Shown: one piece after another, positions 3,823 through 33,873 of the stretch
Layout of the letters: every line of letters begins with the position of its first letter
Position numbering within the stretch: the first letter of the stretch is position 1
Source of the DNA: a virus
DNA length: 39,126 nucleotides
Strand: one strand, 5' to 3'
Virus record (IMG/VR): IMGVR_UViG_3300027518_000001
Notes under the pieces: model-generated
Told to the model about the DNA's origin: nothing
Seen by the model: the letters and a program-made list of their open reading frames with translations, nothing else
Databases searched by the model: none
Made by a program: the position numbers and the translations under genes

Positions 3823-6711
3823 TTATAACTCCGCACTTAATCCGAGATAACCAGAAGATGAATTGTTTACTTCAACAAAATAAGGACGATATTGAGTCAA
3901 ACTACCTGATGTAGTGAACTTTAGAACAGGTCGAGATGTTGAGGTTCTGTTCGCACTGTCAAAAGTAACAGATGACACAGTTGAAGCATTTTGTGTATCT
4001 ACAACACGAAGTGTTGAGAAATCAATTGCCGAAGGAGTTACTCTCATTGCAACTGGTAAAGATATTTGAGAGATTACATAGGTTGAATCTGAAGCCATAC
4101 CAAAACTTATCTGTTCGTAAACTCCACCAGTACCAAAGCGCACATAGTAACGCTGACACGCAGCCAACTCAGATGCTGGGTTGCCAGTAGCAGTTTGGAA
4201 GGCTGTTACTGTAGAACCTGCCTCGGCTTGCATACCCCAGAACTGGAATGTATTAGACTGCAATCCTGGATTACCACTTCGCGTTGCAAGTGTTGAACCA
4301 TTAGATAACCAGAAATTCAAAACTATATGCCCGCCACCACTAGGAGAACTTAATTGTCCTGATGTCCAAGTTAATGCAGGAACTACAAAGGTAAATGAAT
4401 ATCTTGCCCAAGATGTTGAAATAGTTCTAGTTGTTGAGTTAGTCCCAAAAACTGCAGAGCCAGAACCACCAGAGTTTTGAATAACTTCTAACCCTACTTT
4501 TGGTGTTCCACTTGTAGCCTTAGCCCAAAATGATACTGTAATTGTTTGCCCAGCAAAAGTTCTTGGGTCTTCAATTCTTTGTTCAAATGTGATATAACTT
4601 CCAGTATCACTACCTGATGTAGTAGCAACTTGATAAAAGTATGCACTTTCATAGCCAGATACAGGAGCAGTACCAGGTGTAAATGTTTGCTGCGTTACAG
4701 TTGCAGCAGCACCAGTACCACCAAAATCTAATTTCCATCTATCGGCTGTATAACCTGCTGTGCTAAATGTAGTACCACGCTGCCAGATGCTAAAGTCACC
4801 ATTAAGAATCTTATTCTTACCAGCAGAAAAATCACCAGTGTTTTGAACAAACCTAGCATTAGCCTCTGCCTGTGTATAAGTATTAGAAACACTAAATGCA
4901 GTAAAGGCTAAGACTGTAACAATGTCACTAGCAGTCAATGCTGCCATACCAGTAATGCTTGTACCATTAGATGCTGTGTAATCAGAGCCTCGTACCTGTA
5001 GCACACCATTGATATAGACCTGCTCTTTACCTACTATGTAGGACAGAGTTAAACTGTTGTCATCAGGACCAGATACGCTGGTTGCGCCTGCTGATACTGT
5101 GTACTTGTAGGCAATAATGTCAGCACTAGATGAGATTTCTCCCCAAGCAGTACCTGACCAGACGAACATCTTATTAGATACAGTGTTCCAATATAGAGCA
5201 CCAGTAAGTAGCGCATTGCCATCATTGTCTACTGATGGTGGAGATGACTTGGCACCTAGGTACCTATCGTCAAACTCATCATAAGATGTAGCGGCACTAG
5301 TTGCTGAAGTCAAGGCAGATGATGCTGAAGTAGATGCACTCGCTGCAGAAGTAGCAGCAGCGGTCTGGCTAGTTAGAGCAGAAGATGCTGATGTGCTAGC
5401 AGACGCAGCAGATGTTGCTGCAGCGGTTGCTGAGTTGCTTGCCGATGTTGCAGAAGTTGCAGCAGCACTTGCGCTAGCAGCAACTACAGATTCACTTGCA
5501 GCAGCATTGATAGCACTTGTATTAGCAGCAGTCGCAGAGGCTGCAGCAGAGGTAGCACTAGTAGCAGCAGCGGTTGCTGATGCGGCTGCACTGGCTGCGC
5601 TTGTGGCTGCAGCAGTTACGCTTGCATTCATAGTAGAAGCAGATGTGGCTGCAGAGTTTGCAGATGTTAAAGCAGATGATGCGCTAGTAGCAGCACTTGT
5701 CGCGCTAGTCGCTGCAGCAGTAGCAGAGTTTGCAGCAGATGTAGCATAGCCAGCAATCGTTGCTACTGAGTTGGCAGCAGTTGTTGCACTGTTCGCTGCA
5801 CTAGTTGCACTAGTTGCCGCTGCTGTGGCAGATGCTGCTGCTGAGGTAGCACTTGTCGCTGCTGCTGTAGCAGAACTTGCAGAAGCACTTGCAGATGTTG
5901 CAGATGCTATTGCTGATGTTTCTGAACTTCCAGCAGATGTAGCAGCAGATGCTGCACTAGTTGCTGCACTTGCAGCCGATGTGGCTGCTGCAGTTGCTGA
6001 GCCCAAAATGCTGTCTACATAATCCTTAGGAGTTGCAGATGAAGCAGACATCCCTGCAGAAGATAGACCAGTGATAACTGGTGAGCCTGAGATAGTCGGG
6101 CTAGTTAAAGTCTTGTTAGTAAGAGTCTGTACTGCCGTTGCAATAACCACTGTGCCTGTTGTGTTAGGCATTGTGATTGTATTGTCCTGTGTAGGGTCGA
6201 CCACTGTAAGGGTGGTCTCAAATGCATCAGGTGTTGCACCCTCAAAGACAATGCTTGCATCTACACCTGCACCAGAAATGCTTGGGTTGGTGATTGTAGG
6301 GCTTGTAAGGGTCTTATTAGTCAGTGTCTGGGTGTCGATAGTTCCGACAACAGAAGAGGAGTTTGAGATGCCGTGAACCCCTGTAGAAGCCTCAATATGG
6401 GTATTGGCTTCGCGGTAGTCACGACCGATTGCCATGTGGCGCGTAACTGCACCAGCCGAGTGGGCTTGGGCGGAAGAGCCATCAATACCACGGGTAATAG
6501 TAAAGGTATTAGTAGATACCGCCGTGGCATCTACAATTTCTTCAAGGGCTGTATCTGGGTCAATAACCAAAGTAAAGGTTGTGCCACCTGAAATGGTTGC
6601 ACCACCAAGAAGCGCAGGCCCAGACTGAACAGTAATTGTTGTTGCACCAGCAGTAACCGCGCTAGTCAGCGTAGATTGCTGAGAGCGTGAGGAGTAGTTT
6701 CTAGTTGTCAT
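3823..6711 (-). CDS. Tail fibre. N-terminal anchor with TLTNKTLTSP repeats, a roughly 34-heptad Ala/Ser rod, and a C-terminal receptor-binding domain (paralog 1).
   Basis: 962 aa. Two QTLTNKTLTSPTI repeats, a long SAxxAAT heptad tract, and a C-terminal roughly 340 aa homologous to the two downstream proteins. Confidence 0.85.
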   Translation of the reverse strand: MTTRNYSSRSQQSTLTSAVTAGATTITVQSGPALLGGATISGGTTFTLVIDPDTALEEIVDATAVSTNTFTITRGIDGSSAQAHSAGAVTRHMAIGRDYREANTHIEASTGVHGISNSSSVVGTIDTQTLTNKTLTSPTITNPSISGAGVDASIVFEGATPDAFETTLTVVDPTQDNTITMPNTTGTVVIATAVQTLTNKTLTSPTISGSPVITGLSSAGMSASSATPKDYVDSILGSATAAATSAASAATSAASAATSAGSSETSAIASATSASASASSATAAATSATSAAASATAAATSATSAANSATTAANSVATIAGYATSAANSATAAATSATSAATSASSALTSANSAATSASTMNASVTAAATSAASAAASATAAATSATSAAASATAANTSAINAAASESVVAASASAAATSATSASNSATAAATSAASASTSASSALTSQTAAATSAASASTSASSALTSATSAATSYDEFDDRYLGAKSSPPSVDNDGNALLTGALYWNTVSNKMFVWSGTAWGEISSSADIIAYKYTVSAGATSVSGPDDNSLTLSYIVGKEQVYINGVLQVRGSDYTASNGTSITGMAALTASDIVTVLAFTAFSVSNTYTQAEANARFVQNTGDFSAGKNKILNGDFSIWQRGTTFSTAGYTADRWKLDFGGTGAAATVTQQTFTPGTAPVSGYESAYFYQVATTSGSDTGSYITFEQRIEDPRTFAGQTITVSFWAKATSGTPKVGLEVIQNSGGSGSAVFGTNSTTRTISTSWARYSFTFVVPALTWTSGQLSSPSGGGHIVLNFWLSNGSTLATRSGNPGLQSNTFQFWGMQAEAGSTVTAFQTATGNPASELAACQRYYVRFGTGGVYEQISFGMASDSTYVISQISLPVAMRVTPSAIDFSTLRVVDTQNASTVSSVTFDSANRTSTSRPVLKFTTSGSLTQYRPYFVEVNNSSSGYLGLSAEL
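5285..6003 (-). repeat. Coding tandem repeat: about 34 imperfect 21-nt units (heptad S-A-x-x-A-A-T)
   Basis: Protein reads SATAAAT SAASAAT SAASAAT ... SASSALT SATSAAT. The DNA is GCN/TCN-rich, which produces spurious Ala/Val ORFs on the plus strand. Confidence 0.85.
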
Positions 6712-9831: not shown

Positions 9832-11034
9832 CTAGAGAGCAGCGATTGATGAACCAGATGTGATTCGGTATAGAGCCTCATCGCGGTAGACTGCAAAGCC
9901 AAGTACGCCGTACCAACCCATTGGGCGGAAGCGCATCAACTTATCAGTTACGTTACCAATAACTACGTGTGGTTCTTCTGCTACGGCTTCTGCCATTGCC
10001 TGTGAACCACATGCGATTGTGTTGAATACACGTGTTACTGGAGTTACAGTTACAGTTGTTGAAACTGTTACTGCTGCTGTGTTTGCTGTGTCTACAGTAA
10101 ATGTAGTTGTTGAACCTGATGTAGTGATAGCAGTAATCTTTGCACCTGAAGCGATACCTGTTCCTGCAATCTTGTCACCAACTTCAGCACGTGTTGCAAT
10201 AACTGCAGATGAAGCAACGCCGAATGTAAATCCTGCTGATGTTCCTGCTACTGTTACTGCTGTTGTTGTTAGTGTTGACTGGTCTGCACCTGTCTTAGCA
10301 TTGTATAGACGTGATGACTCAACGAAGAACGCGCCTTCGTACTCACCAATTTCTCCAGCCCAAATCTTGCTTGCTTCTGAAGCAGACTGTGACTGTGGGT
10401 AACGCCATCCTAGGTCGCCTGTCTCGGCACGAAGGTCGTGTGAAACTTCTGGGTGAATACCAACCCAGTATGCATTTCCGCGACGGCCCTTAGCCTTGTT
10501 AGCACGCAACTTAGCAACAGCCTTGCGGAGGTCTGCTGAGTCTAGTGTATCTGCTGCATCAATTGTTGCAACTGATGTCGCATTACCTGCGAAGATGTTG
10601 TTTGTACCTGAGCGTAGAGTTGTCATTGCAACTGTGTCGATAGAATCTGCAAGGTTGTACGCAATGATGTTAGCAATTGCTGGGTCTACATCTGCAAGTG
10701 AGAAGAGTTCCAATGCGCGAGTTACTAGAACTGCGTTACCGTACTCATTAAGTGTTACTGTGATAGAGGTAGGAGTTGTCAGTGCTACTGCATCTGGGTC
10801 AACTGTCTCTGTGAGTGTTCCTGTTACTGCATCAAGGTCAACGTACTTCTGTAGAACTACTGTTGAACCTGGGATTGCTTGACGTGCGGGGCGCTTATCT
10901 GCGACAGAACGAATTAGGGGTTCTGAACGGAGAGCGAACTCGAGAAGGCGGTCATATGCCTTCTGAACGAGACCTGCGCCACCTACTGTACCACCGAACG
11001 AACCGCTCGATGTATCTGTAAAGGCGTTTGCCAT
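9832..11034 (-). CDS. Major capsid protein (HK97-fold type; resembles N4 gp56-like capsid proteins from memory)
   Basis: 400 aa immediately after an acidic coiled-coil scaffold gene, with no delta-like N-terminus and a conserved-looking C-terminus (DKLMRFRPMGWYG). Confidence 0.75.
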   Translation of the reverse strand: MANAFTDTSSGSFGGTVGGAGLVQKAYDRLLEFALRSEPLIRSVADKRPARQAIPGSTVVLQKYVDLDAVTGTLTETVDPDAVALTTPTSITVTLNEYGNAVLVTRALELFSLADVDPAIANIIAYNLADSIDTVAMTTLRSGTNNIFAGNATSVATIDAADTLDSADLRKAVAKLRANKAKGRRGNAYWVGIHPEVSHDLRAETGDLGWRYPQSQSASEASKIWAGEIGEYEGAFFVESSRLYNAKTGADQSTLTTTAVTVAGTSAGFTFGVASSAVIATRAEVGDKIAGTGIASGAKITAITTSGSTTTFTVDTANTAAVTVSTTVTVTPVTRVFNTIACGSQAMAEAVAEEPHVVIGNVTDKLMRFRPMGWYGVLGFAVYRDEALYRITSGSSIAAL

Positions 11035-11065: not shown

Positions 11066-11539
11066 TTATTGTTGTGATTGAAGAAAAGCAATAAAATCTT
11101 CAGCGCTCTCAAAATTGCCATTTAGACGAGCGTTCATATCATTTGCTTTATCTGGCGAAATACCCTGCTGCGTCACAACATCTTGCTGGCGTAATGCTGC
11201 AAGATTAGTGTCGTCATTATTTGACTGAGGCTTATACCCAATTAAATCTCCATTGTCAGATAGCCAATTATTAATTGACTCTTCATTAACTTCGGAAATA
11301 TCTTTTAGGATTAGCCGTGCTGCTTTAGTATTTACGCCCTTCTTTTCTAGGACTTCCTTAAGTGTCGCCTCACGCTGCGCCTTGGAGAATATCTCAAGTT
11401 GCTCAGTAAGTTCCTTAATACGTTTTTCATCTGCACGCTTGGCTTTGCGTAACTTTTTAAGTAAGTCACTACCATCCAATGGTGCTTCTGTTTCTGTATC
11501 TAGGTCGTCATCTTCTTCATCCCAGTAGTTGTTGCTCAT
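11066..11539 (-). CDS. Scaffolding protein
   Basis: 157 aa. Very acidic N-terminus (DEEDDDLDTETE), a charged helical middle (KKLRKAKRADEKRIKELTEQLE), and position directly upstream of the capsid gene. Confidence 0.65.
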   Translation of the reverse strand: MSNNYWDEEDDDLDTETEAPLDGSDLLKKLRKAKRADEKRIKELTEQLEIFSKAQREATLKEVLEKKGVNTKAARLILKDISEVNEESINNWLSDNGDLIGYKPQSNNDDTNLAALRQQDVVTQQGISPDKANDMNARLNGNFESAEDFIAFLQSQQ

Positions 11540-12969: not shown

Positions 12970-14684
12970 TAGCCCATGAATCCAAACGACTTAAGTATGG
13001 TGTCAGCAAAATTAGCAGCAGTATTGCGTGCTTCTTCTGTTTGCCGCCATAGTGGGTTTGCTTGCATCTGTCTATTAAACTCTGCGGTACTCATTAGTCC
13101 GCCATCTCTAGTAAGTGCCATCTGTACATCTTTGTCATTAAAAGCATCAGTAATTGGAATACCTAGTTTTTTTGACTTAATTAATGCATACTGGTCAGCA
13201 ATGTCTTTAACATTTCCACCATTAGTAATGTGGTCTTTAAGATTGCCATACATAGTTAGTGCATTAAGACGTAAACGTTCTGTTTGTTTTTGTATAGCAT
13301 CTTTTTCTGTACCACCAGCAATAACAAAAGCAAGTGCTTCTCCTGCTGTTAGTGGTTGTCCATACTCTGCTCCAGCCTTTTGCAAGGCTGCTATCTGTAT
13401 AGCAACTTGGCTGCCTTTAGCAGACTTAAGTAATGCTCCTGCGTCTGTACCCTCAAGGGCTTTAATAACAATAGCGTTCTGAGAGTTTTGGCGTTCTGCT
13501 GCAGTAAAGGCTGCGCCTTTACGAGTAGACTTAGTTATCTTTCCAGTTGCATCACGGGTTGTAACAACCTCAACAGCAGACTTTTTTTCACGCTCATTAA
13601 TATCTTTAAAGTATGCTTCTTTTTCTTCTTGTGTTGCTGGTCTACCTATAGCATCAATAAGGTAATCATTAATTTCAGTATAAGCATCGCCTGCTGTAGT
13701 AAGAATTATATCTGTATCTTTAAAAGTTCCAGCCTTACTTTCTGGCAATCCTGTTCCAGCCCCGCCTTTAGCAGAGTTAAACCAAGAAAAAAAAGGAACT
13801 TCTTTAACGCCTTCAATTTGAATTTTAGTTGCAGCATCAAATGTATATTTAGCAATTGCATTATCAAGACCAAACAACCAGTCGTCTTGTTCTAGTTGTT
13901 TTTTTGTAATCCAGGTACGATTAACTAACTCTCTTTTTAAAGCATCTAGTTGTCCAGGCTGTGAATAGTTCTTAAGAAAAGCCTCACGTGCTGAAATAAT
14001 ACTTTTATACTGGTTAATAGTTGTTGAGCCATCAGCGTTTTTTGTATCAACAAAATAGATACGCTCTCCATTAAGAATAACATTACCAGAAGATTCAATT
14101 GCATAACCTTTAAGTCTGTCTTCTGCTACATCTATAACACCGCCATCTTCAAGAGGTGCTGGTGTTTCTACAGTTTTATTTTCAGGTCGAATTATTCCCT
14201 TGGGTGCAGGCGGTAATGGTTTAACCTTCGCACCTGCATTTTTAGCAGCAGTCTGAGCATCATATGCAGCCTGTACCGCTGCTTCATACTGAGCCTGACC
14301 ACGTGAAGGAATAAGTGCTTCTGCTTTTTTAAGGTCAGTAAGTGATTTCTCATATGCATCAAGTGCACCTTGCGCATCCTTTTGTTTTTCACTTGTTCCT
14401 TGAGCGCGGTTAAGTTCTAAACGTGCAGCGTTTTTTGCATCTTGTGCTCGCTTATATGCAAGAGAAGCATCATCATATTGTTTCTTGATAGCATTAAAAT
14501 CTTTTATATTAAAGTTACGTATACTGCCTGGTTTTGCATCATTCTTTTCTTTACTATCTAAAGCAAGTAAATACTTTTGTTCTAAACCACCGCGCCCCGC
14601 AGTACCATTAAGGATGTCATAGGTACGGCGTGCTTCTTCTGAAGCATCAAAGAAGGCTTTTTCTAAACCTTTAATGTCAGCCAT
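12969..14684 (-). CDS. Putative internal virion or ejection protein (571 aa)
   Basis: Long ORF with a coiled-coil N-terminal third. Its start overlaps the stop of the 1703-aa gene. Confidence 0.4.
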   Translation of the reverse strand: MADIKGLEKAFFDASEEARRTYDILNGTAGRGGLEQKYLLALDSKEKNDAKPGSIRNFNIKDFNAIKKQYDDASLAYKRAQDAKNAARLELNRAQGTSEKQKDAQGALDAYEKSLTDLKKAEALIPSRGQAQYEAAVQAAYDAQTAAKNAGAKVKPLPPAPKGIIRPENKTVETPAPLEDGGVIDVAEDRLKGYAIESSGNVILNGERIYFVDTKNADGSTTINQYKSIISAREAFLKNYSQPGQLDALKRELVNRTWITKKQLEQDDWLFGLDNAIAKYTFDAATKIQIEGVKEVPFFSWFNSAKGGAGTGLPESKAGTFKDTDIILTTAGDAYTEINDYLIDAIGRPATQEEKEAYFKDINEREKKSAVEVVTTRDATGKITKSTRKGAAFTAAERQNSQNAIVIKALEGTDAGALLKSAKGSQVAIQIAALQKAGAEYGQPLTAGEALAFVIAGGTEKDAIQKQTERLRLNALTMYGNLKDHITNGGNVKDIADQYALIKSKKLGIPITDAFNDKDVQMALTRDGGLMSTAEFNRQMQANPLWRQTEEARNTAANFADTILKSFGFMG

Positions 14685-17600
14685 TACTTTAACTCCTTAT
14701 ATACATAGTATGATTCGCGTGAATAAAATCCAAGTATTGATTTAAAGATTGCACGGTTGGCTTCTGTTACATATAGGTCGCCTACCATTAATTCGTTTAG
14801 ATTAGCCTCTATTTGTTCTTTTCTTTCTCGCTTAAGTTGTGCAATGTTTTCAACATTCTTTAACTCTGGGTCAGTAGAGAAAGCAATAAATTCTCGTACC
14901 ATCTTAATTGCCATCATTAACTTTTGGCGTGTGGCTGGTCTAACATCAGTATTAGGGTTTGAAATTAATTGCTCAAGACTATCAAGCATTACAGATTCAT
15001 TACCAATTTCATTACCAGAACCAATAAGTTCTGAATTAAGCAATGGGTTGTTAGCCTTTAATGCAGCACGTTGCTGCTCTGCTGCTTTAATAACATTGGC
15101 TCGTAGTTCTGGGTCTGACAGATTGCTAAGAATATCTTTTTGCTGACGAGCAATGTCATAATACTTCTGCTTATCCTCTGCTACCTGTATATCTGTGTAG
15201 TAGTCTTCAAGGCTTTTGCTTTCAATAAGGCCTGCTGCCTTAATCCAGTTATAAGTACCAGCATTAAAGTCACCAATCTGTGGTGCAAAAATGTAGGCAA
15301 CCTCACCATAGGTCTTAATTAAGTCAGCGTTTTTAATGCCCCAGTTTTTTAACTTATCTGTGTTCTTAATAAGAACGCTAGTCTGCTTATCCTCACGGGC
15401 AACTGTGTAGATAAGTTTGCCTGGATTCTTACCAATGTATGTAGCAAGTGCTACCTCGTATGGGTCCGAAATGTCTCCATTATTAACAGCAGTTATGCCA
15501 TTAAGAATATCAAAGAACTCTGAGCGCAAAGTAGTAATACCAGTGTCTTTAATATAGTCAGGGATTCCTACAGACTCCATAGTTGTAGGTGCAACTGGTG
15601 ATAACAAACCTAGGAAGTGGCGCATAAATAATACATTATGTGCTGAGATACGAATGTTCTTTAGGTATTCAGACTTTTCTTCATCTGTAGCATTTGCTGT
15701 AATACCTATTCCGTTGGCTGCATTGTAGGCAATAGCCTGCTGTGCAGCGGTTACTTCTTGTCTAGACTTTTCATCAAATCCCAACATAGCCCAGACACGC
15801 TGTAAAGACGAAGGAACAACAGCACGGAATATATCAACATTGTCACCAATGTTACCTAATGCAAAAGTATCAATGCTTTCACCTAGTTGCTGTGAGTATG
15901 GCTGTATTGCACCACCAACAAATGGAATTTTTCCTGGAACTACACCAAGAATATTCTTTACAGCAATAACTCCTAGCCCTGCAATAGGGCCAGACAAAGT
16001 AGGAAGACCAGCATCTTGTGAAAATGATGGGCTAACCATTCTTAGTTTAAATGTAAACTCATTAAACAATGGCTGGCTATATCCAGTATTACCTGTTAGC
16101 GCACGAAACGCACCATCTGTAGCCTTATAGATAATGTTATCCATAGGCATTACTACATACGGCTCACCTTCGGCATCGTTAAAAATAGCGCCACTTGATT
16201 CAAGTCCTACGTTAACTAAACGCAAACGATACAAGGTACGTGGTGCTACATCCTTTAAACGATAGATACGGCGATAAAAATCCTCAGTTGCTCTATAGTA
16301 ACGACCAACGGTACGAATGCTAAATGAAAAGTTAGAACGTATCTTTGGGTTATCAGCAAACTTTAGAATAGTATCTGCTGCTTCACGCACCGCTAATTCA
16401 GTAAAACGCTTTTCTGCTATAGCCTTATACTTCTCAGTTACTAAATCAATCTGCTTTTGAGTAGCACCAGCAAAAGGACCCATCTCATTTGCTACCTGTT
16501 GACGAACAAACTCTTTTTCAATACCAGCATACTTTCTGCGCAACTGCGCATATGTAACCATAACTGCTGGTTGACGGAATAAACCAGTTACTTGTTGGTC
16601 CATCCAGTCCATCATAGTATTTCCGTAGCGTCTAAATACAGACTCTACATCAAAGTCACCAAAGGCTATTTCAGTATTGATAGGTCCGCTAATACGGAAT
16701 CCTTGGCTAGCATCTTGAAACTCATCTAAAGGAATACGTGCAACCGCTGCGTTCCAAGTAGGAGTGCGACCAGATTCTGCACTCATCTTAACTAGTTGCC
16801 CGTAACTATTCTTAACTACATCTAATAATCCCTGATTAAACTTGTTAGCATCACCATGGAATGTTTCGTACATATCAGTAAACATACGGAATAACTGACC
16901 ACGGGCAATTTGCTCATCATCTAGTCCACGACCACGTGCTTGAACTGTGTAGGCTGTGCGTTCTAAAAATGCACCAACAGATAGATTGTCTTGAATCTGC
17001 CAAGTATTAGTTAACGGTTCAAATTTAAAACCAATTTTTTCCATACCAGCATCAAGTGCTAGTTCCATCATTTCTTTACCAGTGCGTGGGTCTACCTCGC
17101 CTGGCTTTAATGCATTGTATCTAAAAAATATTTCTGCTGGATTAAGCGTAACTTCATCGGTTAGTTTGGCCTTGTTACCAGCCATCATCTTGAACCATTT
17201 TTCAAAGTGCGCTAATGCAACTTCGCGTTCTGTTAGCATAGCCGTATCAATAGTACGGGTTCCTTTACCCATCTTAATACCTAATGCATCAAAAGCCATA
17301 TCAAGCATAGATGGTGTAATAACTGATGCAACAATCTCCTCGCCATAGCGACCAGAGATACCACTGCTAGCAACAAGAGAAGCAGCCATTGAGTTAAGTG
17401 CATCAGGTGAATGTACAAAGGCTTGCATTAAATAACCAGCAGTTTCAGGGTCAACATAACGACCATACATTTGTGAAACAGCAGCAGATATTGCTTGACG
17501 TTTTTCTAAACTTGTTAAAAGAACAACATCAACTTCTAATTCATCTGCTTTGTTTTGTAAAATTGTTTGTCTATCTAAAATTGACAGTGCTTCTTCGTGT

Positions 17601-19795
17601 GAGTATCGTGGTTGTTTACCCATACGCATAGGTAAATCTGTGCGTGGCGCAAACTTTAATGTTTTCTGAATACTACGACGAATAGGACCACTAGCAGATT
17701 TAGAACCTGTAGCAGCGCGGGACATATTTCCTAGTCTTAATCCTTCTAGCGATGCAAATTTGCGCATATCTTTAGTAGGTGCAGACAATAAATACATAGT
17801 TGCTTCATCAATAGCAGAACGAACACCTAAGCGTGGGAACAAGGTTAAAATAGACCATGCATCAACTAGTCTTTTTGAAAAATTACCCTGTGTTGCTCCA
17901 CCAATTGCAGTAATAATGTTTTTCTTAGACTTAATTTCCCATACAGTTGACCCGATTGTGTCATAAGGTAGTGGACCAATAGCCCATGTAGTCTGATAAG
18001 GCTGCAATGGACCTTCAGTATTAACAAAAAATCCTGATTCAGATTCACGAACAGTATTTGCTGGTGCAAACTTAACATGGTCTGGATTAATTGCTAGGTC
18101 TCGCTTAGTAGCAAAGCCCGCTTTATCACCATACTTGTCTTGTAGTGTTTTAAGAATTAAATCTTCACCCTTAACACTGCCACCTAGTCCCATTGAGTAC
18201 ATAGTTGCAGCATCTAAGTTACGCAAAATAACTACTTGCTCATCAGCAGTTGATTCTAAAAAGCGAACAGTTAACGCTTGAGCCATATCTTTTGGCAAAA
18301 TCTGACGAGCACGGGCTGTAAAGTTAGAAGCAGTATCAATAGCATTAACGCCAACTCGTACTTCTAGTCCTTGTGGCGAACGTGCCGCTAAACGACCAAT
18401 TTTTTTCCAACCTTTAATCTCTTCATTAGCCTTTAATACTACAGACATATCAGAGTTAGGGTTAACTAAACGCTGTAGTGAATCTTCTGCATTAAGAAAT
18501 GCAGCACTAATTGGGTCAAGAGCAGCATCTCTTTCAGCAGCATTACGAGACATGTTATTAAAAACTCTGTCAAGTGAACGTATTAGTGCATCTGAAAATA
18601 AACGAGTTTGACGTGCTACTACTACGCCATTGCGCATGTAAGTTATACCATCAACTCGTCCTGCTAACAATAGATTTAGATTGCCAGCATTTTCAAAGTA
18701 TGCTTGTGCTGATGCAGCATCAAATACTTCTCCGTCAACTAAAGCCTTAATTGCGCTTTGGTCATTATACCCAGGAAAGTTTTTTGCAATTTCATCTAGT
18801 GCAATTGACTTTGCACCTGGAGTTCCGCTTGAGTCTTTTACCTTTTTAAGCGCAGGACCTAGTCCATCTTGCCAGAATGAATAAACTAACGGATTCTTAA
18901 ATGTATCTCCAACAGCCTTTTCTACTGAAACACCATTGTTAATTGCTTCAGTAAGCGAGTTAGCAATACGCTCACCTCTAGTTACACCCTTACTTAGTCC
19001 ACCTGTCATCCAGGTAAGTGGGTCTACAGCAATTTGATAAATAAAATCTATAACACCAGATACGTTTTTTGTTTTACTGCTTACACCACTTGATGGTGGC
19101 TTGCGGTCAAGCATACGGGCAATGTCTCGTCCTGGAGAAATCTGTGCGTACTTTACGCCATCTAATACTTCTTGAAAAGCCTCTGGTTCATCGTATGCTC
19201 TTTTAATTGAGTTAAGAAGATTAGCGTCTACTTTACCAAAGTCTTGAACAATTTCGCCAGGAGTTTTACCTGCAAGTAATCCTTTAGCAACCATAACATC
19301 AAACTCACCAAAGTAACTGGTCGCTTCCGCCAAAGCCTTGTCATCATATTGATTCTTTCCGTCCCATGCATCTGTCCATGTTTTCATTGAAAACAAATCT
19401 TCGCCCTGTGCAACCTGTCGTGCAATCTTATAAGGCTGATTAATTAAGCGGTTATACTGCCCACCTAGTTTAAATAAACCAATTAATGGTGATGCAACTA
19501 TTGTTCCAATAGTTTTAGCAACACCAAATAAACGGTCTGACACATCAGGTGCATCCTGCATATAGTCAGCATCTTTAAACATAAACTTTAGTTGGTCTTG
19601 AAATTGAGGCTCTAAACGGTTATATTCTTTACGAGCCATTTCTGTACCAAGTTTAACTAGTTCACGATGCTTTTTAATCGTGTAACTCATTTGTTCTATT
19701 TGGTTTTTTTCTACGCCAGTTAGGTTTGCGGTTTTTGCAGCAGCATAAATATTAGGTGATACCTCAGCAACAATCGGTTTAATGTACTGGGCCAT
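14684..19795 (-). CDS. Giant virion-associated protein (1703 aa), function unknown
   Basis: Uninterrupted 5.1-kb ORF in the head module. I recognised no polymerase, lysozyme or peptidase motif. Confidence 0.8.
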   Translation of the reverse strand: MAQYIKPIVAEVSPNIYAAAKTANLTGVEKNQIEQMSYTIKKHRELVKLGTEMARKEYNRLEPQFQDQLKFMFKDADYMQDAPDVSDRLFGVAKTIGTIVASPLIGLFKLGGQYNRLINQPYKIARQVAQGEDLFSMKTWTDAWDGKNQYDDKALAEATSYFGEFDVMVAKGLLAGKTPGEIVQDFGKVDANLLNSIKRAYDEPEAFQEVLDGVKYAQISPGRDIARMLDRKPPSSGVSSKTKNVSGVIDFIYQIAVDPLTWMTGGLSKGVTRGERIANSLTEAINNGVSVEKAVGDTFKNPLVYSFWQDGLGPALKKVKDSSGTPGAKSIALDEIAKNFPGYNDQSAIKALVDGEVFDAASAQAYFENAGNLNLLLAGRVDGITYMRNGVVVARQTRLFSDALIRSLDRVFNNMSRNAAERDAALDPISAAFLNAEDSLQRLVNPNSDMSVVLKANEEIKGWKKIGRLAARSPQGLEVRVGVNAIDTASNFTARARQILPKDMAQALTVRFLESTADEQVVILRNLDAATMYSMGLGGSVKGEDLILKTLQDKYGDKAGFATKRDLAINPDHVKFAPANTVRESESGFFVNTEGPLQPYQTTWAIGPLPYDTIGSTVWEIKSKKNIITAIGGATQGNFSKRLVDAWSILTLFPRLGVRSAIDEATMYLLSAPTKDMRKFASLEGLRLGNMSRAATGSKSASGPIRRSIQKTLKFAPRTDLPMRMGKQPRYSHEEALSILDRQTILQNKADELEVDVVLLTSLEKRQAISAAVSQMYGRYVDPETAGYLMQAFVHSPDALNSMAASLVASSGISGRYGEEIVASVITPSMLDMAFDALGIKMGKGTRTIDTAMLTEREVALAHFEKWFKMMAGNKAKLTDEVTLNPAEIFFRYNALKPGEVDPRTGKEMMELALDAGMEKIGFKFEPLTNTWQIQDNLSVGAFLERTAYTVQARGRGLDDEQIARGQLFRMFTDMYETFHGDANKFNQGLLDVVKNSYGQLVKMSAESGRTPTWNAAVARIPLDEFQDASQGFRISGPINTEIAFGDFDVESVFRRYGNTMMDWMDQQVTGLFRQPAVMVTYAQLRRKYAGIEKEFVRQQVANEMGPFAGATQKQIDLVTEKYKAIAEKRFTELAVREAADTILKFADNPKIRSNFSFSIRTVGRYYRATEDFYRRIYRLKDVAPRTLYRLRLVNVGLESSGAIFNDAEGEPYVVMPMDNIIYKATDGAFRALTGNTGYSQPLFNEFTFKLRMVSPSFSQDAGLPTLSGPIAGLGVIAVKNILGVVPGKIPFVGGAIQPYSQQLGESIDTFALGNIGDNVDIFRAVVPSSLQRVWAMLGFDEKSRQEVTAAQQAIAYNAANGIGITANATDEEKSEYLKNIRISAHNVLFMRHFLGLLSPVAPTTMESVGIPDYIKDTGITTLRSEFFDILNGITAVNNGDISDPYEVALATYIGKNPGKLIYTVAREDKQTSVLIKNTDKLKNWGIKNADLIKTYGEVAYIFAPQIGDFNAGTYNWIKAAGLIESKSLEDYYTDIQVAEDKQKYYDIARQQKDILSNLSDPELRANVIKAAEQQRAALKANNPLLNSELIGSGNEIGNESVMLDSLEQLISNPNTDVRPATRQKLMMAIKMVREFIAFSTDPELKNVENIAQLKRERKEQIEANLNELMVGDLYVTEANRAIFKSILGFYSRESYYVYKELK

Positions 19796-20226
19796 TAAAA
19801 GTCTCTATCAAGAATTGTTCTGTAAATTAACTCTGCATCTCCTGATGAATCAAACTGTGCTAAATACTTTAATGTGTCAAGAAGTGTTGGTGTTTGATTA
19901 GGTAAACCGCGCATTGCTTCTGAACCAGGACCAGGACCCATGTCAATACCAGATGTAATTGGTTCATCAGGACGCATAGTTGGTGCACCTAAAGGTGTTG
20001 GCATTTGCACTTGAGGCATCTGTGGCATTGAAGCGCCTTGCATAGGCGCACTTGTCTGTTGCTCCATAGTTGCTTGACCTTCTCCATATGGCAAGCCAGC
20101 AATGTATCTAGCAGGTTGTGTAGCGCGGCCCGATTGGCCAGCACCACCAGTTGCTGAAACATTTGCTGGATTATTTTGAGGGGCTGTTGGACGATACCCA
20201 CCACGATTTTCTGGGGCAGTTGTCAT
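19795..20226 (-). CDS. Pro/Gln/Met-rich low-complexity protein (143 aa)
   Basis: ORF coupled to both neighbours. MPQMPQVQMPTPLGAPTMRPDEP tract. Confidence 0.55.
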   Translation of the reverse strand: MTTAPENRGGYRPTAPQNNPANVSATGGAGQSGRATQPARYIAGLPYGEGQATMEQQTSAPMQGASMPQMPQVQMPTPLGAPTMRPDEPITSGIDMGPGPGSEAMRGLPNQTPTLLDTLKYLAQFDSSGDAELIYRTILDRDF

Positions 20227-20489
20227 TCTTCATCCTCCTCTTGCTCAATAGGTTCGTGCTTAGTACCAAGTACTTCGCTGTTGTACTCTTGTGCCATCTT
20301 CATCATCCCGTATGCGTTCCATGGTGTCATGGCTTCGCTAACTTCTGTATGTAAATATCGGGTCCCTTCGTAGTCTGCCCACTCGGTTATCATTAACCAG
20401 TTAGTGCAGATAAACTCAGTCCCCTTCGTATCTTCTTCAAGAAGAATTTTTAATGCTTCTTCTATTTTATTTCTAAACTGTTTGCTCAT
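20223..20489 (-). CDS. Hypothetical protein (88 aa, acidic C-terminus)
   Basis: ORF coupled by an ATGA overlap to the upstream gene. Confidence 0.55.
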   Translation of the reverse strand: MSKQFRNKIEEALKILLEEDTKGTEFICTNWLMITEWADYEGTRYLHTEVSEAMTPWNAYGMMKMAQEYNSEVLGTKHEPIEQEEDEE

Positions 20490-21058
20490 TTTGTGTTCTG
20501 TATCTTTACTACAACTGGCTCACCAGTATGTATATCCCAGCGAGATGCAATTTTAATTGCCATTCTAATATCTATTTCGGCCACCTTTGGCGTAGTTTGC
20601 TTTCTAGAATTAGCAAAAGCCTCAATGGCACCGAGAGCAATGTCAGCACCACTGCCAGAACAATAGATACCACGAACATCGCGGTCCCAAGAATAATCTT
20701 CAAAGATAGGATAAATAACTCCGCGAACGACGACAAGAAATTGCGAATCATGTGCTGCTGCATCCCCATCTTCTTTCATGTCATAACCAGAATCAATAAA
20801 CAATTTACGCATTGCTGGTATAAAAGTCTGTGTCATAAATACATCTAAGTCATCAGTAGCCCGTGGCTTAGGTGCTTTCCATCCAAACTGCAAAATGTTA
20901 GAACCACGACTAGCACCAGAACCTGCAATTAAGATTCCGTTGTTTTCAATAATCTTATGTGTTGCTAGTTCCATAAAGCGACCATCATCACCAGATGAAC
21001 GAGAGTCACAGCCAACGGCTGCCCAACCATTTCCCTGAATTGCTACAAGCGTTGTCAT
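20486..21058 (-). CDS. HslV/20S-proteasome-beta-like N-terminal-nucleophile hydrolase; candidate prohead/virion maturation protease
   Basis: M-TTLVAIQGNGWAAVGCDSRS (Thr1, Asp17), THKIIE (Lys34, matching Lys33), ILIAGSGASRG, IYCSGSGADIALGAIEAF, and an HslV-like C-terminus (AIKIASRWDIHTGEP). 190 aa. AAGGAGG SD. Sits right after the portal gene. Confidence 0.75.
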   Translation of the reverse strand: MTTLVAIQGNGWAAVGCDSRSSGDDGRFMELATHKIIENNGILIAGSGASRGSNILQFGWKAPKPRATDDLDVFMTQTFIPAMRKLFIDSGYDMKEDGDAAAHDSQFLVVVRGVIYPIFEDYSWDRDVRGIYCSGSGADIALGAIEAFANSRKQTTPKVAEIDIRMAIKIASRWDIHTGEPVVVKIQNTK

Positions 21059-21073
21059 TGTCCCCTCCTTAAG

Positions 21074-22816
21074 TTAGCGTCGCGTAACTGTCCTTGCTGA
21101 TGCTGATGCTTCTCCACCTGATGTTAAACTTGCTAAAAGACTTTGTAGTTGTAGTGGTTGCTGTGGTTCTAAAGAAGCGCCTCCTGCTGGCGCGGCGGGA
21201 ACAGGGGACGGTTGCTCAACCTGTGCACCAGCAGGAGGTAATTCTGGGGCAAAGACTTCTTCAACCGCATCCTCTACTGGTATGCCACGTTGACGAGCCT
21301 TAATAACTCCAGCAATTTTCTTTACCACGCCCGATGGGTCCCCACCTTGTACAGCCATTTGTGGAATTGCTTGTGTATATGCTTGTAAAGAACTAACCAG
21401 TGCTTTACGCATATTTTCAATTTCAATCTTTTCTTGCTCTTGTGTTACGTTAATACCAAATGGTAGTTCACGCATTGCTAGGTCTGTAGAAATTAATCCA
21501 CCACCTAATGCTTGTAACATAAAGATAAGTCCCTGTGCTGGGTTAAGCCCAGCAAGCATGCCGTATCTAACATCGGCAGTAAAGTCACTCTTAATATCTT
21601 TGCCTGGCTTGTAGGTAAGGCTATAAGGAGAGCCTGCATCTACGCCACGGATTGTCTTTTCAAAATCAAAAAACTTCTCATCTACCTCAAAACATACAGA
21701 AATAACATCTCTTAATGCAGAAGCAAAGATAGCCTGAGCAGATTTAACCTGCGTATCAAAGCCACCCATAAGTGCTTGAACACCTTGACCAGTAATAATG
21801 GAAGCATCAATGTTTCCAGTACGTCCCTCTGGGTAACGCGTTCCTGTTCGTAGTTCCTGCTGTAACAAAGCCTGCTCAGTAAATGCGCCAGGTGGAATGT
21901 TAAGGTCTACGCGTCTTACACCTGCTGGGTTTGCTGTGCGAATAATTGCATCGCCACCCAGTTCAAGTTCTGTTACATCTGTTGGTAGAACAATTGGAGC
22001 CTGTACTGACTTCTCTGCTGCTTCCATCGCAAGTAATGCGAACCTGTTACGAAGCAACTGAATACCCAATACATCATCAAACTGTCCACGCATCTCACCA
22101 TCAACTGATGGACGCTTGGCAACAACAACCATCATCTTACCAAGCGGATTAGCCGCCTTAGATAAAACTAAATTGTTTCTATCTGGAACAAACAACAGAG
22201 ATTGTTGTGCATCGTAATAACGAATTATCTCTAGTTGAGCGTTAAGGTCCTGCTTGTACATTTCTGGACCAAGCAGTTCTCTTGCATACTCAGGGAACTC
22301 TGAAGCGAGTTCTCCGACGCTTAAGTAATAACGCTTAGCAAAGGCAATACAGCGTCCGTAGCGGTCAAATTCTGGGTAAGCCCCCACTGGATTTTCTACG
22401 CGGATACGCGGCAGCCCTGCTTCTTCGTCTAATTCAATAATGAAAGGGACGAAACCAAATGTGATGTACATGTCTGCGCCTGTGTACATCTGTACTTGCA
22501 AATCAGAGTTTGCAAAATAATTATTAGCAATGCGAGTACGTGTGTCTGCAAACTTGCGAGCACGGTCGTTTGCTTGATTAGCAGCAGAACAATTAACAGA
22601 TGGCAATGGAGCCATTACCTCTGATAGGTCACGGGCTACAATGTCAATAAAGTTAGCAACTACGTTAGCATCAACACCCTGTGGAAAGAAGTCTGGGTAA
22701 ACACTTGCTATCTGTCCTTTACGGACGGCAAGAACATCTTGCTGGCGTGCATCACGCTCTGCAGCACGGTCTTTAAGAGATGCAACCCGTGCTGAAATCT
22801 GCTCTATCGAAAGCAT
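21074..22816 (-). CDS. Portal protein
   Basis: 580-aa ORF immediately downstream of TerL. Called from size and synteny. Confidence 0.7.
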   Translation of the reverse strand: MLSIEQISARVASLKDRAAERDARQQDVLAVRKGQIASVYPDFFPQGVDANVVANFIDIVARDLSEVMAPLPSVNCSAANQANDRARKFADTRTRIANNYFANSDLQVQMYTGADMYITFGFVPFIIELDEEAGLPRIRVENPVGAYPEFDRYGRCIAFAKRYYLSVGELASEFPEYARELLGPEMYKQDLNAQLEIIRYYDAQQSLLFVPDRNNLVLSKAANPLGKMMVVVAKRPSVDGEMRGQFDDVLGIQLLRNRFALLAMEAAEKSVQAPIVLPTDVTELELGGDAIIRTANPAGVRRVDLNIPPGAFTEQALLQQELRTGTRYPEGRTGNIDASIITGQGVQALMGGFDTQVKSAQAIFASALRDVISVCFEVDEKFFDFEKTIRGVDAGSPYSLTYKPGKDIKSDFTADVRYGMLAGLNPAQGLIFMLQALGGGLISTDLAMRELPFGINVTQEQEKIEIENMRKALVSSLQAYTQAIPQMAVQGGDPSGVVKKIAGVIKARQRGIPVEDAVEEVFAPELPPAGAQVEQPSPVPAAPAGGASLEPQQPLQLQSLLASLTSGGEASASARTVTRR

Positions 22817-22823
22817 TTATTTC

Positions 22824-24710
22824 CTATCCGTATTGATGATTCCACATTTCAGATGCGGCATCATCTAGATTGATTGATGTACGTTTATGTTGTTGCGCTC
22901 TAGTAGCCCAACGATTGTTAGCGTACCTAGCGATATTGCTATTTTGCTGCATGAACTCACGGGCACGGATAACCGCAAACCACAAAGCCATAACAGTATC
23001 TGTCTTACCTCTGGTGTCAGGCTTCCAAGTAATTAACTGTTGGACCAATGCCTTCATACCTTCTGAGTTTTCAGTACTAGGTAATTCTATAATGTTGTTC
23101 TTTTGGAACTTACCTTCGCGACTTGTGCCAAAGAGTGTTGACATAGATGCCACACCGAAGTTTGTGTCCCATTTGTTCTTGCCTGTAAAGTGAGAATTAA
23201 GCCGTACGCCGTGTGAAGAGAGCCATGTTCGTAGTTCTTCATCAAGGGAGTAGGCTTTTTGGTGAGCGTTGATTTCAACGCGGAACTCTTGCGGTCTGTA
23301 CCGAAGCGTAAAATCTTCAATGGCTTGCCTAATCTTTTGTGGCGTAGGGTCTGGCATGTTCAAACACTCTAGAACATAAATCTTTCCATCAGTCCTGTTA
23401 TAGGTGATAGCCACAAATGCAGCGTTACCCGCCATAGCGGGGTCAAAGCCCACGATGGTGTAGCCCTCAACTTGGTTCGGGTGTCCCGTTGCACCTGGCT
23501 TTAATGGACCACGCTTGCGCATACCATTGATAGAACCTTGCACCAGTTCAGGTGGAAAGATAGAGTCTTCGGTTACATCTTCTTGTTGATAAACAAGCGC
23601 CCATGTTGCTGGGGTTACTTCGCTTCTACGCTTGAAAAGCGTTTCGCCATCCCACTTAGGGTATAACCCTTCTTCGTTAGGTGGGGTGTCTTCATCCCCG
23701 TCCCAGGGTGTATCACTTGCAGGCCAGAGAGTTGTCCAGTCTTCTGGCTTATCGCTATAGTCAAGAACTGCTGGCATACCCATGTATGTGAAAGGTGACT
23801 TGCCACCAGACCAATGCTTAGGGTCGCGGAGTTCTTTATAAAAATCAGATGGCGCAATACGGGTACCTACCACCAGTAACTTACCGTTCTTGCCCAAACG
23901 GGTAATAACTTCCTTTTGCAGCCAGTTAATTTGCTTTTCATGCTCGTGAGCGTTAGAGGTAGTTATACAGTCATCTAGGATAATCAGGTCGGCACGGGCA
24001 CCGTAAATCTGACCACCCATACCCAGTGCCTGAATCGTTGGGTCTTTTTCACTTGAGTTTCTCGCATCACTCCCAAGATAGACCGTGTCAACTCGCCAAG
24101 TATCTGAGTCTTCTTTCCAGCCCCCTTCTGGTCCAAAAGTTGTTTGTAACTTTAGCCAGCGCGGGTGGGATAATCTCTGCTTGATTGCGTACACGAACTC
24201 GCGTGCTTTAACAAGGGTCTTCGAGACCACAATAATGCGGACGTTCGGATTGAGAGCGATGCGATAAGTTGCGTAGTTAACCGTAATGACGGTTGATTTG
24301 GCGTGCTCAGGGGGAACGTTTAAAAGAAGGCGGTTCCGATTGCCTGGCTCGTAAATCATATTGGGGTGCAGCCACGAAGGCTCGCGGCCCTCTAATAGGT
24401 CAATCCAATCCATATGGTGTGGAAAAACCCGCTGGTCCAAAAACATTTCAGAAAACTGAGGAAAAGTAATATCTTCACGGGCTACGCCCATGGCTTTTAA
24501 TGAACGCTCTTTAGCGTTTTCCTTTGCCTCCACAAGGGCGGTAGCAAAGGCTGGGTCTCTTAAACACCAGATACGAACAGTGTCTGGCTTTTTGCCATTT
24601 TGTTCCATAGCCTTATGCACAGACATACCTTCAGAAACCAGCGCCAAAACTTTGGCTTTAGCCTCTGCCGCCATAGCGGTACGAGGATTATTAGTCTTCT
24701 GAAAAGTCAC
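22824..24710 (-). CDS. terL: Terminase large subunit with an N-terminal TerS-like HTH extension
   Basis: NVPPEHAKST (Walker A-like), DLIILDD (Walker B), and a C-terminal nuclease-type region (IVGFDPA). The N-terminal roughly 70 aa, KVLALVSEGMSVHKAMEQNGKKPDTVRIWCLRDPAFATALVEAK, look like a small-terminase HTH. GTG start at 24710. Confidence 0.85.
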   Translation of the reverse strand: MTFQKTNNPRTAMAAEAKAKVLALVSEGMSVHKAMEQNGKKPDTVRIWCLRDPAFATALVEAKENAKERSLKAMGVAREDITFPQFSEMFLDQRVFPHHMDWIDLLEGREPSWLHPNMIYEPGNRNRLLLNVPPEHAKSTVITVNYATYRIALNPNVRIIVVSKTLVKAREFVYAIKQRLSHPRWLKLQTTFGPEGGWKEDSDTWRVDTVYLGSDARNSSEKDPTIQALGMGGQIYGARADLIILDDCITTSNAHEHEKQINWLQKEVITRLGKNGKLLVVGTRIAPSDFYKELRDPKHWSGGKSPFTYMGMPAVLDYSDKPEDWTTLWPASDTPWDGDEDTPPNEEGLYPKWDGETLFKRRSEVTPATWALVYQQEDVTEDSIFPPELVQGSINGMRKRGPLKPGATGHPNQVEGYTIVGFDPAMAGNAAFVAITYNRTDGKIYVLECLNMPDPTPQKIRQAIEDFTLRYRPQEFRVEINAHQKAYSLDEELRTWLSSHGVRLNSHFTGKNKWDTNFGVASMSTLFGTSREGKFQKNNIIELPSTENSEGMKALVQQLITWKPDTRGKTDTVMALWFAVIRAREFMQQNSNIARYANNRWATRAQQHKRTSINLDDAASEMWNHQYG

Positions 24711-32705: not shown

Positions 32706-33046
32706 GTACAGCAGCCAAGCGTAAAGGCAGCAAAGCAGAAGCAGATGCTGTCAAGTGGTTAAAGGTTAATGGCTTTCCATATGCAGACCGCAGAATTGCA
32801 GGAGCACAACTAGACAAAGGTGATATCAGCGGTGTGAATGGAGTGACCATCGAGGTTAAAGACCACGTCCGCATGGACTTGAGCGCTTGGGTCAAAGAGT
32901 TAGAAGTAGAAATTAAGAATGATAACGCGTGGACTGGGACAGTTCTGCACAAGCGGAAAGGTAAGTCAGATGTTGGTGAATGGTATTGCACAATGCCAGC
33001 CAGCATTTGGCTTGCCCTAATCAGAAAGGCAATGGGTGAAACATAG
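32702..33046 (+). CDS. Hjc/PD-(D/E)XK-type Holliday-junction resolvase-like endonuclease
   Basis: RKGSKAEADAVKWLKVNGF...DKGDISG...TIEVKD motif order. Confidence 0.5.
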   Translation: MSTAAKRKGSKAEADAVKWLKVNGFPYADRRIAGAQLDKGDISGVNGVTIEVKDHVRMDLSAWVKELEVEIKNDNAWTGTVLHKRKGKSDVGEWYCTMPASIWLALIRKAMGET

Positions 33047-33410
33047 TATCGCGGACTACTTAAGATATGTAGGCGCAGCCGTGCCTGCTGAGGGACACGG
33101 CTGGCGCAAAATTAAGTGTCCATTTCATGCGGACAGTCATGCATCAGCAGGTATTAACTTTGAAGAAAACAGATTCAAATGCCACGGATGTGGTGTTGGT
33201 GGAGATGTATACGATTTAATTATGCATAGAGAAGGAGGTAACTACAGTGAGGCTGTCAAGTTCGCACAGACAATTTCTCTTACAGGCGACGCACCAGTAC
33301 GCAAGTCAGATTCATCTAGCAGCAGAGTATCTAGCAACACGCAATCTCTCGGTCGAAGAGGCGCAACGCTTTCATCTTGGAGTGGTAAAGGACGCTCTTC
33401 CAGGTCATGA
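33036..33410 (+). CDS. DnaG-type primase, CHC2 zinc-binding domain ORF; the last roughly 45 codons are low-complexity read-through
   Basis: CPFHADSHASAGINFEENRFKCHGCGVGGDVYDLI. Sense is lost after ...EAVKFAQT into SDSSSSRVSS...GRSSRS. Confidence 0.7.
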   Translation: MKHSIADYLRYVGAAVPAEGHGWRKIKCPFHADSHASAGINFEENRFKCHGCGVGGDVYDLIMHREGGNYSEAVKFAQTISLTGDAPVRKSDSSSSRVSSNTQSLGRRGATLSSWSGKGRSSRS

Positions 33411-33873
33411 ACAATACACAGGCAGGCTAGCAATACCCTACATAACACCATCAGGTGTAGTTGATATTAGATTCAGAGCAATAAGTAATGCTGACCCAAA
33501 GTATATGGGCATGCCAGGTGCTAAGACCAGCATGTTCAATGCACAAGTAGTTCTTACTGCATCAGATTACATCTGTGTGACAGAAGGAGAAATAGATTGC
33601 ATTACAGTTAGTGTCAAGACTAACCATCCAGCCGTAGGTATTCCAGGAGCCAACAATTGGAAACCGTTTTACTCTAAGATATTAGATGATTTTGATACAG
33701 TAATTGTGTTAGCAGATGGTGACACAGCAGGTATGGATTTTGGCAAGAAGGTTAGCCGAGAGTTAGGTAATGTTAATATAGTGCAGATGCCAGAAGGGCA
33801 TGATGTAAACAGCATAGTAATGCTAGAGGGGGCAGAGTTTATTAATGAGCGAATCCGAAAATGCATTTCTTAA
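33247..33873 (+). CDS. DnaG-type primase, RNA-polymerase/TOPRIM domain ORF, in the +1 frame relative to the zinc-finger ORF
   Basis: AAEYLATRNLSVEEAQRFHLG, ICVTEGEIDCITV and VIVLADGDTAGMDFG (TOPRIM E and DxD). GTG at 33247 lies 8 nt after AGGAGG (33233-33238). Confidence 0.7.
   Translation: MRLSSSHRQFLLQATHQYASQIHLAAEYLATRNLSVEEAQRFHLGVVKDALPGHEQYTGRLAIPYITPSGVVDIRFRAISNADPKYMGMPGAKTSMFNAQVVLTASDYICVTEGEIDCITVSVKTNHPAVGIPGANNWKPFYSKILDDFDTVIVLADGDTAGMDFGKKVSRELGNVNIVQMPEGHDVNSIVMLEGAEFINERIRKCIS

Follow-up and report, generated by a model that had tools for sequence, protein, structure and literature searches.

A proteasome-like threonine peptidase gene as an optional, exchangeable cassette downstream of the portal gene in a probable actinobacterial podophage lineage

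Introduction

The group I proteasome-like homologues comprise HslV, BPH, AAH, CPH and PPH. AAH and PPH have been noted in numerous phage genomes, and the survey concerned found AAH in no Actinobacteria-specific phage (Fuchs, Alva and Lupas, 2021; PMC8665760). Here we analyse a gene of this kind in the IMG/VR virus record IMGVR_UViG_3300027518_000001, whose whole stretch of 39,126 nucleotides (nt) is called the window throughout; the gene is an open reading frame (ORF) of 190 amino acids (aa), located on the minus strand directly after the portal gene. Proteasome homologues of phages have been catalogued before (PHROG 1040; Fuchs et al., 2021, PMC8665760), and the protein is therefore not new as a kind. 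What is new here is the likely actinophage nature of its carriers, the portal-adjacent slot in which it occurs as one of several alleles or not at all, and its linkage to Hsp20 genes in other phages.

The location of the gene invites comparison with the prohead proteases (HK97 gp4-type S78/U35, T4 gp21/assemblin-type and ClpP/S49-type), whose genes likewise lie just downstream of the portal gene in a late operon. These enzymes differ from the window protein, an N-terminal nucleophile (Ntn) threonine peptidase, by an unrelated fold and catalytic type. In addition, the window gene is not conserved in relatives sharing the head module, the scaffold and capsid genes are located 9.5 kb downstream of it, and the capsid protein has no delta domain. 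An original prediction, made from the sequence alone, had seen in this gene "a different solution" to the prohead-protease role. Our results show instead that it is an optional accessory gene, carried as an exchangeable cassette, and not an obligatory capsid-maturation protease.

Results and discussion

A compact member of the proteasome superfamily

The gene in question is the following:

20486..21058, minus strand: proteasome-like N-terminal-threonine peptidase gene (HslV/BPH/AAH-type), 190 aa, no propeptide, starting M-T-T

Its product, which begins with MTTLVAIQGNGW (longer N-terminal excerpt, MTTLVAIQGNGWAAVGCDSRS), is a compact, propeptide-less member of the proteasome-beta/HslV/BPH superfamily with a complete catalytic layout. 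It matches PHROG 1040 ("peptidase HslV family") at E 6e-20. As a single sequence it scores 19.1 bits with the Pfam Proteasome model (PF00227) against a gathering cut-off of 22.4, and a precomputed PF00227 match is present in many homologues 60-73% identical to it. A single-sequence phmmer search of the PDB gave no match, and a profile of 41 homologues retrieved the 20S beta5 subunit (E 1e-4) and HslV (E 9e-4); in this alignment Thr2 is placed opposite Thr1 of the mature chains, and a C-terminal D-x-y-T/S opposite their Asp166/Ser169 segment. The AlphaFold2 monomer model (pLDDT, the predicted local distance difference test, 86.7; pTM, the predicted template modelling score, 0.84) displays the alpha-beta-beta-alpha Ntn fold; the 190 aa are taken up by this catalytic fold, with no additional targeting domain. 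Submitted to Foldseek, it matches BPH, 20S beta subunits and HslV at E 7e-11 to 1e-9, with template modelling (TM) scores of 0.66-0.77. Among its 1047 PDB matches at E<=1e-3, the best 50 are all BPH, 20S proteasome subunits or HslV, and about 37 viral proteins match it in BFVD. No prohead-protease fold, whether assemblin-like or ClpP/S49-like, was matched in Pfam, PHROGs, the PDB or Foldseek, where proteasome/HslV was the only fold recovered.

The original prediction of a proteasome/HslV-fold Ntn hydrolase is thus upheld by the agreement of the PHROG 1040, PDB profile and AlphaFold2/Foldseek matches. The HslV/20S beta active-site layout that it described is also present with all the motifs it named, which in mature numbering are Thr1, Asp17 (in GCDSR), Lys34 (THKII), Gly47 (AGSGA) and Ser135 in SGSG. 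The catalytic residues are conserved across homologues. T2, D18, K35, G48, G135-S136-G137 and D175 are invariant in the 41 close homologues, and in an alignment of 124 sequences (123 full-length distant representatives and the window protein) position 2 is Thr or Ser in 121/124, position 18 is Asp or Glu in 122/124, and Lys35 is kept in 123/124. In the same alignment Gly135 occurs in 123 and Gly137 in all 124 sequences; D18, K35, G48 and G135-S/T136-G137 are 92-100% conserved, and D175 73% (90/124). Most of the 123 representatives begin with MTT or MTC and therefore have no propeptide. The homologue family extends to 3855 clusters (50% identity) at E<=1e-3. Among close copies of the window gene, referred to below as type A, the ratio of nonsynonymous to synonymous substitution rates (dN/dS) is 0.08 for the protease, compared with 0.06 for the portal, and the protease gene is under strong purifying selection.

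Among the described systems, BPH (PDB 5ovs/5ovt/5ovu) gives the best match in structure (Foldseek E 7e-11, TM 0.72-0.77) and is likewise a stand-alone proteasome-like subunit with an N-terminal Thr; it differs in being a cellular protein of Proteobacteria, with 18-21% sequence identity. The AAH and PPH groups and PHROG 1040 resemble the window protein in being compact (about 180-190 aa), propeptide-less and found in tailed phages, with Thr1/Asp17/Lys33 kept. PPH, however, is only about 140 aa and proteobacterial, in contrast to the 190 aa found here. As for AAH, the carriers described here look like actinophages, unlike what Fuchs et al. found (PMC8665760), and a portal-adjacent, four-allele, present-or-absent slot is not described in that survey of AAH and PPH (PMC8665760). 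The placement of the window protein in group I rests on its compactness, the lack of a propeptide or insertions and its Foldseek neighbours; of these, BPH comes first, followed by 20S beta and HslV, which puts the protein nearer to BPH or HslV than to 20S alpha or Anbu. Fuchs et al. name WP_035979212 as the AAH reference.

HslV (ClpQ) has the same size, the same M-T-T start without propeptide and the same catalytic residues, and it matches the model at E 1e-9. The protein's size and its TT motif at the N-terminus, like the IMG annotation "ATP-dependent protease HslVU peptidase subunit", could suggest a true HslV orthologue pairing with host HslU and boosting ATP-dependent proteolysis, which we nevertheless judge to be highly improbable. 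The identity to HslV is 14-18%, and the NCBIfam HslV equivalog models were not passed, with 16.2 bits for NF003964 (cut-off 137) and 15.2 bits for TIGR03692 (cut-off 157.75). The best structural neighbour among the Foldseek matches listed is BPH and not HslV. Furthermore, neither HslU nor any other Clp-type unfoldase is encoded by the window ORFs scanned, in agreement with the original prediction that an HslU/AAA partner is missing; the sole P-loop protein found is a DnaB-like helicase. Finally, the hosts are likely Actinomycetota, a phylum not among the HslV carriers in Table 1 of Fuchs et al. (2021; PMC8665760). The protein is therefore not HslV proper, and the IMG label "HslVU peptidase subunit" is no proof of HslV orthology. 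HslV assembles as a double hexameric ring; the model of the window protein is a monomer prediction.

A separate observation concerns the 90%-identity cluster of the 190-aa protein, whose representative is 580 aa long (the length of the portal) and of which one member has 395 aa. This looks like a gene-call or clustering artefact, because of which the best listed homologue is only 86% identical despite the existence of 99% identical copies.

A portal slot with four types of peptidase or none

IMG/VR holds 433 loci with a window-type gene, and the synteny counts refer to the best 80 of these. The portal is directly followed by the protease in 80/80, the terminase-portal-protease order extends to the 143-aa protein in 77/80, wherever the fetched DNA reaches that far, the 88-aa ORF comes after the protease in 69/80, and a homologue of the 1703-aa protein was detected in 58/80. 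The portal-adjacent synteny anticipated by the original prediction is therefore kept, within carriers.

This constancy could be taken to indicate a facultative head-maturation protease, that is, a ring co-assembled with the portal into the procapsid, which would degrade the 157-aa scaffold or trim the 143-, 1703-, 571- or 436-aa internal proteins. The same position in the late operon, immediately after the portal and with translational coupling, is held by the type-A gene in all 80 loci and by three other diverged lineages, and Pfam and PHROG searches detected no other protease family in the head module. In addition, as stated in the original prediction, the capsid protein has no delta domain, as its alignment begins at residue 3, and a 157-aa scaffold candidate is encoded separately. 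If true, head maturation would gain a fourth structural class of protease, an optional one with which close relatives can dispense. The distribution of the gene among relatives, its exchange between them and its occurrence in other phages all bear on this reading.

In a first scan, 75 loci with a portal 74-99% identical to that of the window were collected, of which two were too short and 73 assessable. The slot 3' of the portal contains type A in 16 of these and types B, C or D in 34 taken together, and it is empty in the remaining 23. The three further types are:

Slot type B: MTAIVGIQGKGW..., 189 aa
Slot type C: MTTIIGLEH..., 180 aa
Slot type D: MTTIIGVEFANRC..., 178 aa

Each of them is 28-35% identical to type A, and they are 23-44% identical among one another. 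The Thr, Asp, Lys and Gly residues and the G-S/T-G motif occur in all four types, one type-B sequence having Ala for Ser, and the equivalent of Asp166 varies in types B and C.

A second scan took a gene-less relative as its centre and used the family hidden Markov model (HMM) in all frames, up to 10 kb on each side. In 44 of its 57 assessable loci there was no family-HMM match over this distance, and in the other 13 the gene always lay directly after the portal. Two further anchors, covering 845 kb of early and tail regions, gave matches solely at the portal slot of type-B contigs. A 39.5-kb gene-less contig contains no copy in the 35.6 kb covered, and the remaining syntenic part is copy-free in a related contig. 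The gene-less relatives have portals 77-87% identical to that of the window; in one of them (L233), the scaffold candidate is 70% identical along its entire length, and the capsid protein shows 78-82% identity. After the portal, these genomes have first an unrelated 86-aa ORF and next the homologue of the 143-aa protein.

Among cultured phages, the closest relatives are Beephvirinae podophages infecting Streptomyces, with 44% identity in the portal and 52-57% in the capsid protein. Immanuel3 has five small hypothetical ORFs after its portal gene, next a gene for a 1648-aa protein, and no proteasome-like gene there; nor did tblastn find a proteasome-like gene in any Streptomyces phage. The segment between the portal and the 143-aa gene is a plasticity region throughout the lineage, occupied by five ORFs (Immanuel3), by one small ORF, or by the protease with or without the 88-aa ORF.

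The 88-aa ORF was considered as a conserved partner of the protease and rejected, as it is absent from type B and C loci. Nor is it related to the ORF that follows the homologue in 99-kb phages or to the small slot ORF of the gene-less genomes. The terminase-portal junction is a second variable slot (L215 8619-10001; L082 2661-3425), which contains a 460-aa ORF in some relatives, an endolysin in Immanuel3 and nothing in the window.

Exchange of the protease gene between related genomes

Four loci (L089, L092, L096 and L113) are nearly identical to the window in the portal (98%), the 88-aa ORF (95-98%) and the 143-aa ORF (93-94%), and only 67-68% identical in the protease. At the nucleotide level, the window and L089 are 93-100% identical over most of the portal gene, with 88-90% in two stretches of 100 nt close to the 5' end of the gene; identity falls to 61-80% exactly over 21058-20486 and returns to 88-99% downstream. 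This sharp drop at the ends of the ORF indicates cassette exchange. Diversifying selection through point mutations was considered and rejected, dN/dS being 0.08.

Proteases 97-99% identical to each other adjoin 1703-aa-type proteins that are either 96-98% or 28-32% identical, and the protease allele is thus uncoupled from the allele of the 1703-aa protein. As an observation on the structural block itself, alleles of the 1703-aa protein only 28-32% identical occur where portal and protease are both 97-99% identical (L002-L030), which reveals strong mosaicism within this block.

Occurrence outside the portal slot

Copies 65-67% identical to the window protein are found in unrelated phage contigs of 50-100 kb that carry WhiB. 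In three lineages of these 50-100 kb phages, the gene follows an Hsp20 gene at a distance of 0.1-1.1 kb and stands at the beginning of a rightward operon:

Hsp20-linked loci: L083-L085, 9453-10567; L321, 4377-6365; L322/L323, 4392-6567

When the genes next to these homologues in the larger phages were searched against PHROGs, only Hsp20 was matched, and no head gene was recognisable nearby. The Hsp20 and proteasome-like genes may form a phage-borne holdase-plus-peptidase pair. In cultured phages with distant homologues (DSL-LC01, D'Alembert, Pitbull, pT24 and MTATph1), the gene is surrounded by small early or accessory genes and is in no case next to the portal. The homologues gp77 of Arthrobacter phage Pitbull and DAL_45 of Psychrobacter phage D'Alembert are about 30% identical.

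These contexts complete the evidence on the head-maturation reading. The gene is absent beside portals 77-87% identical, a scaffold 70% identical and capsid proteins 78-82% identical to those of the window, and also from the cultured Beephvirinae; its alleles are swapped independently of the putative substrates; copies 65-67% identical are located away from recognisable head genes in 50-100 kb phages; and there is no targeting domain beyond the catalytic fold. We therefore regard a head-maturation role, even a facultative one, as decidedly unlikely. The prohead-protease role put forward in the original prediction is not supported: the gene is absent from 23/73 and 44/57 assessable loci, scaffold and capsid genes are retained in gene-less genomes, and both the cassette exchange and the apparently non-structural loci in unrelated phages count against it. 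The gene does not encode an obligatory maturation enzyme, because relatives that have the same portal, scaffold and capsid proteins lack it, because it is swapped independently of its supposed substrates, and because it is common, at 65-67% identity, to unrelated larger phages at another locus.

The same data bear on another explanation, in which the peptidase would be a counter-defence or host-takeover effector destroying a host immune or regulatory protein, its presence or absence and its four alleles reflecting host-specific selection. A hypervariable slot, cassette exchange and presence/absence polymorphism among near-identical genomes are in line with it, as are the adjacency to WhiB-type regulators and the surroundings of the gene in cultured phages, which include methylases and helix-turn-helix regulators. 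Against this, there is no diversifying selection within type A (dN/dS 0.08), and expression from a late operon, as in this clade, is late for anti-defence. We consider such an effector rather unlikely, though less so than a role in head maturation.

Operon setting and genome of the window

The leftward late block runs in the order terminase, portal, protease, 88-aa, 143-aa, 1703-aa, 571-aa and 436-aa proteins, scaffold candidate, capsid and tail-fibre genes, the protease being its third gene. The features that surround the protease gene are:

22824..24710, minus strand: large terminase subunit (phrog_38, E 1e-65), first gene of the leftward late block
21074..22816, minus strand: portal gene, 580 aa (phrog_104, E 2e-29), conserved upstream flank of the variable slot
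21059..21073, minus strand: spacer from portal stop to protease start, 15 nt, with the Shine-Dalgarno sequence AAGGAGG, read from sequence
20223..20489, minus strand: 88-aa ORF, acidic-tailed, its start overlapping the protease stop; accompanies slot types A and D only
19795..20226, minus strand: 143-aa Pro/Gln/Gly-rich protein (phrog_8200), conserved downstream flank, kept with or without the protease gene
14684..19795, minus strand: 1703-aa putative internal/ejection protein, with a homologous giant gene after the portal region in Immanuel3
11066..11539, minus strand: 157-aa candidate scaffolding protein (phrog_7813, weak match to scaffold phrog_648), directly upstream of the capsid gene
9832..11034, minus strand: major capsid protein, 400 aa (phrog_1357, E 7e-75)

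The position directly after the portal given in the original prediction is confirmed, the protease starting on the minus strand 15 nt after the portal stop. The spacer between the two genes reads CTTAAGGAGGGGACA, and the protease stop overlaps the start of the 88-aa ORF as ATGA (20486-20489). A scan for promoters and terminators around the protease gene gave no signal above chance: promoter-like sites stayed under the mean of the shuffled sequences, terminator-like sites exceeded it by only about 1.5 standard deviations, and the stretch from the portal stop to the start of the protease contained none. The Shine-Dalgarno-bearing spacer, the ATGA overlap and the lack of a terminator together indicate that the protease gene belongs to the late operon.

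Several other features of the genome were recorded. The major capsid protein contains an insertion of about 90 aa at residues ~251-339, which is absent in the protease-less L233 and in the Streptomyces Beephvirinae and present in OX376640. Three consecutive tail-fibre-like genes on the minus strand (3823-6711, 2641-3699 and 1454-2509) have a common C-terminal family, phrog_4492, and look like paralogous receptor-binding modules. The primase is seemingly split into a CHC2 zinc-ribbon ORF (33036-33410) and a Toprim ORF (33247-33873), both on the plus strand and overlapping by about 160 nt in different frames, which may reflect a frameshift, an error in sequencing or a primase truly composed of two pieces. 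The G+C content is 42.7%. The first ~113 nt (1-113) recur at the 3' end (39014-39126), from which it follows that the window represents a complete genome, circularly closed and about 39.0 kb long.

The carrier phages

A megablast search of the 6-kb region against cultured phages gave no match, and the clade is without a cultured member. Besides the relatedness to Streptomyces podophages, other window genes have an actinophage flavour, such as an L5 gp49-like protein and a DUF4192 protein. Cellular genomes were scanned with type A as the seed, a broad alignment of 45 sequences being too diverse for this purpose; no close copy was found, with four matches in 185,579 species genomes, all of them on contigs of metagenome-assembled genomes (MAGs). 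The carrier clade consists of ~39-kb aquatic podophages, whose hosts are probably Actinomycetota.

Two contigs deserve separate mention. L327 (CAYQOJ010000008.1, 41.9 kb) is a complete phage of the clade mis-binned in a "Methylococcus" MAG, and L326 is a gene copy on a contig binned to Nanopelagicaceae. This is a weak hint to the host and illustrates how phage contigs end up in MAGs.

Possible function

Taken together, a late-expressed accessory and self-compartmentalised peptidase acting on cytoplasmic targets is, in our opinion, the fairly likely explanation for this gene. Host methionine aminopeptidase would remove Met1 and expose the Thr as nucleophile, by analogy with HslV, and the subunits would stack into rings with their active sites facing inward. 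As suggested by the operon setting, the enzyme would be made late, together with the head genes, and could then work late in infection as a stand-alone peptidase or with a borrowed host unfoldase. From the genomic context, its cytoplasmic substrates may be either host proteins or proteins that are unfolded or in excess. In the larger phages, the pairing with Hsp20 is a hint of an ATP-independent arrangement of holdase and peptidase, with a possible role in protein quality control or host takeover.

A number of points weigh against this explanation. The position just after the portal is the classical place of the prohead protease, and four diverged lineages are all retained exactly at this slot, where co-expression with the head genes may be selected in itself. 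HslV alone is a weak peptidase, so that stand-alone activity is an assumption here, and the window phage has neither Hsp20 nor an unfoldase. The absence from gene-less genomes rests on overlapping fragments, with no single fully read genome. Finally, a literature search for a tested function of a phage HslV or proteasome homologue returned only annotation-level mentions and the survey of Fuchs et al. (2021).

On present evidence, then, the gene adds no new class of capsid-maturation enzyme. Nevertheless, phage-encoded proteasome homologues are widespread, and this lineage offers a natural experiment, in which near-isogenic genomes carry one of four alleles, or none, at the same late-operon site. 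The role of a lone proteasome-like subunit in a phage thus becomes approachable by comparing carriers with their gene-less relatives.

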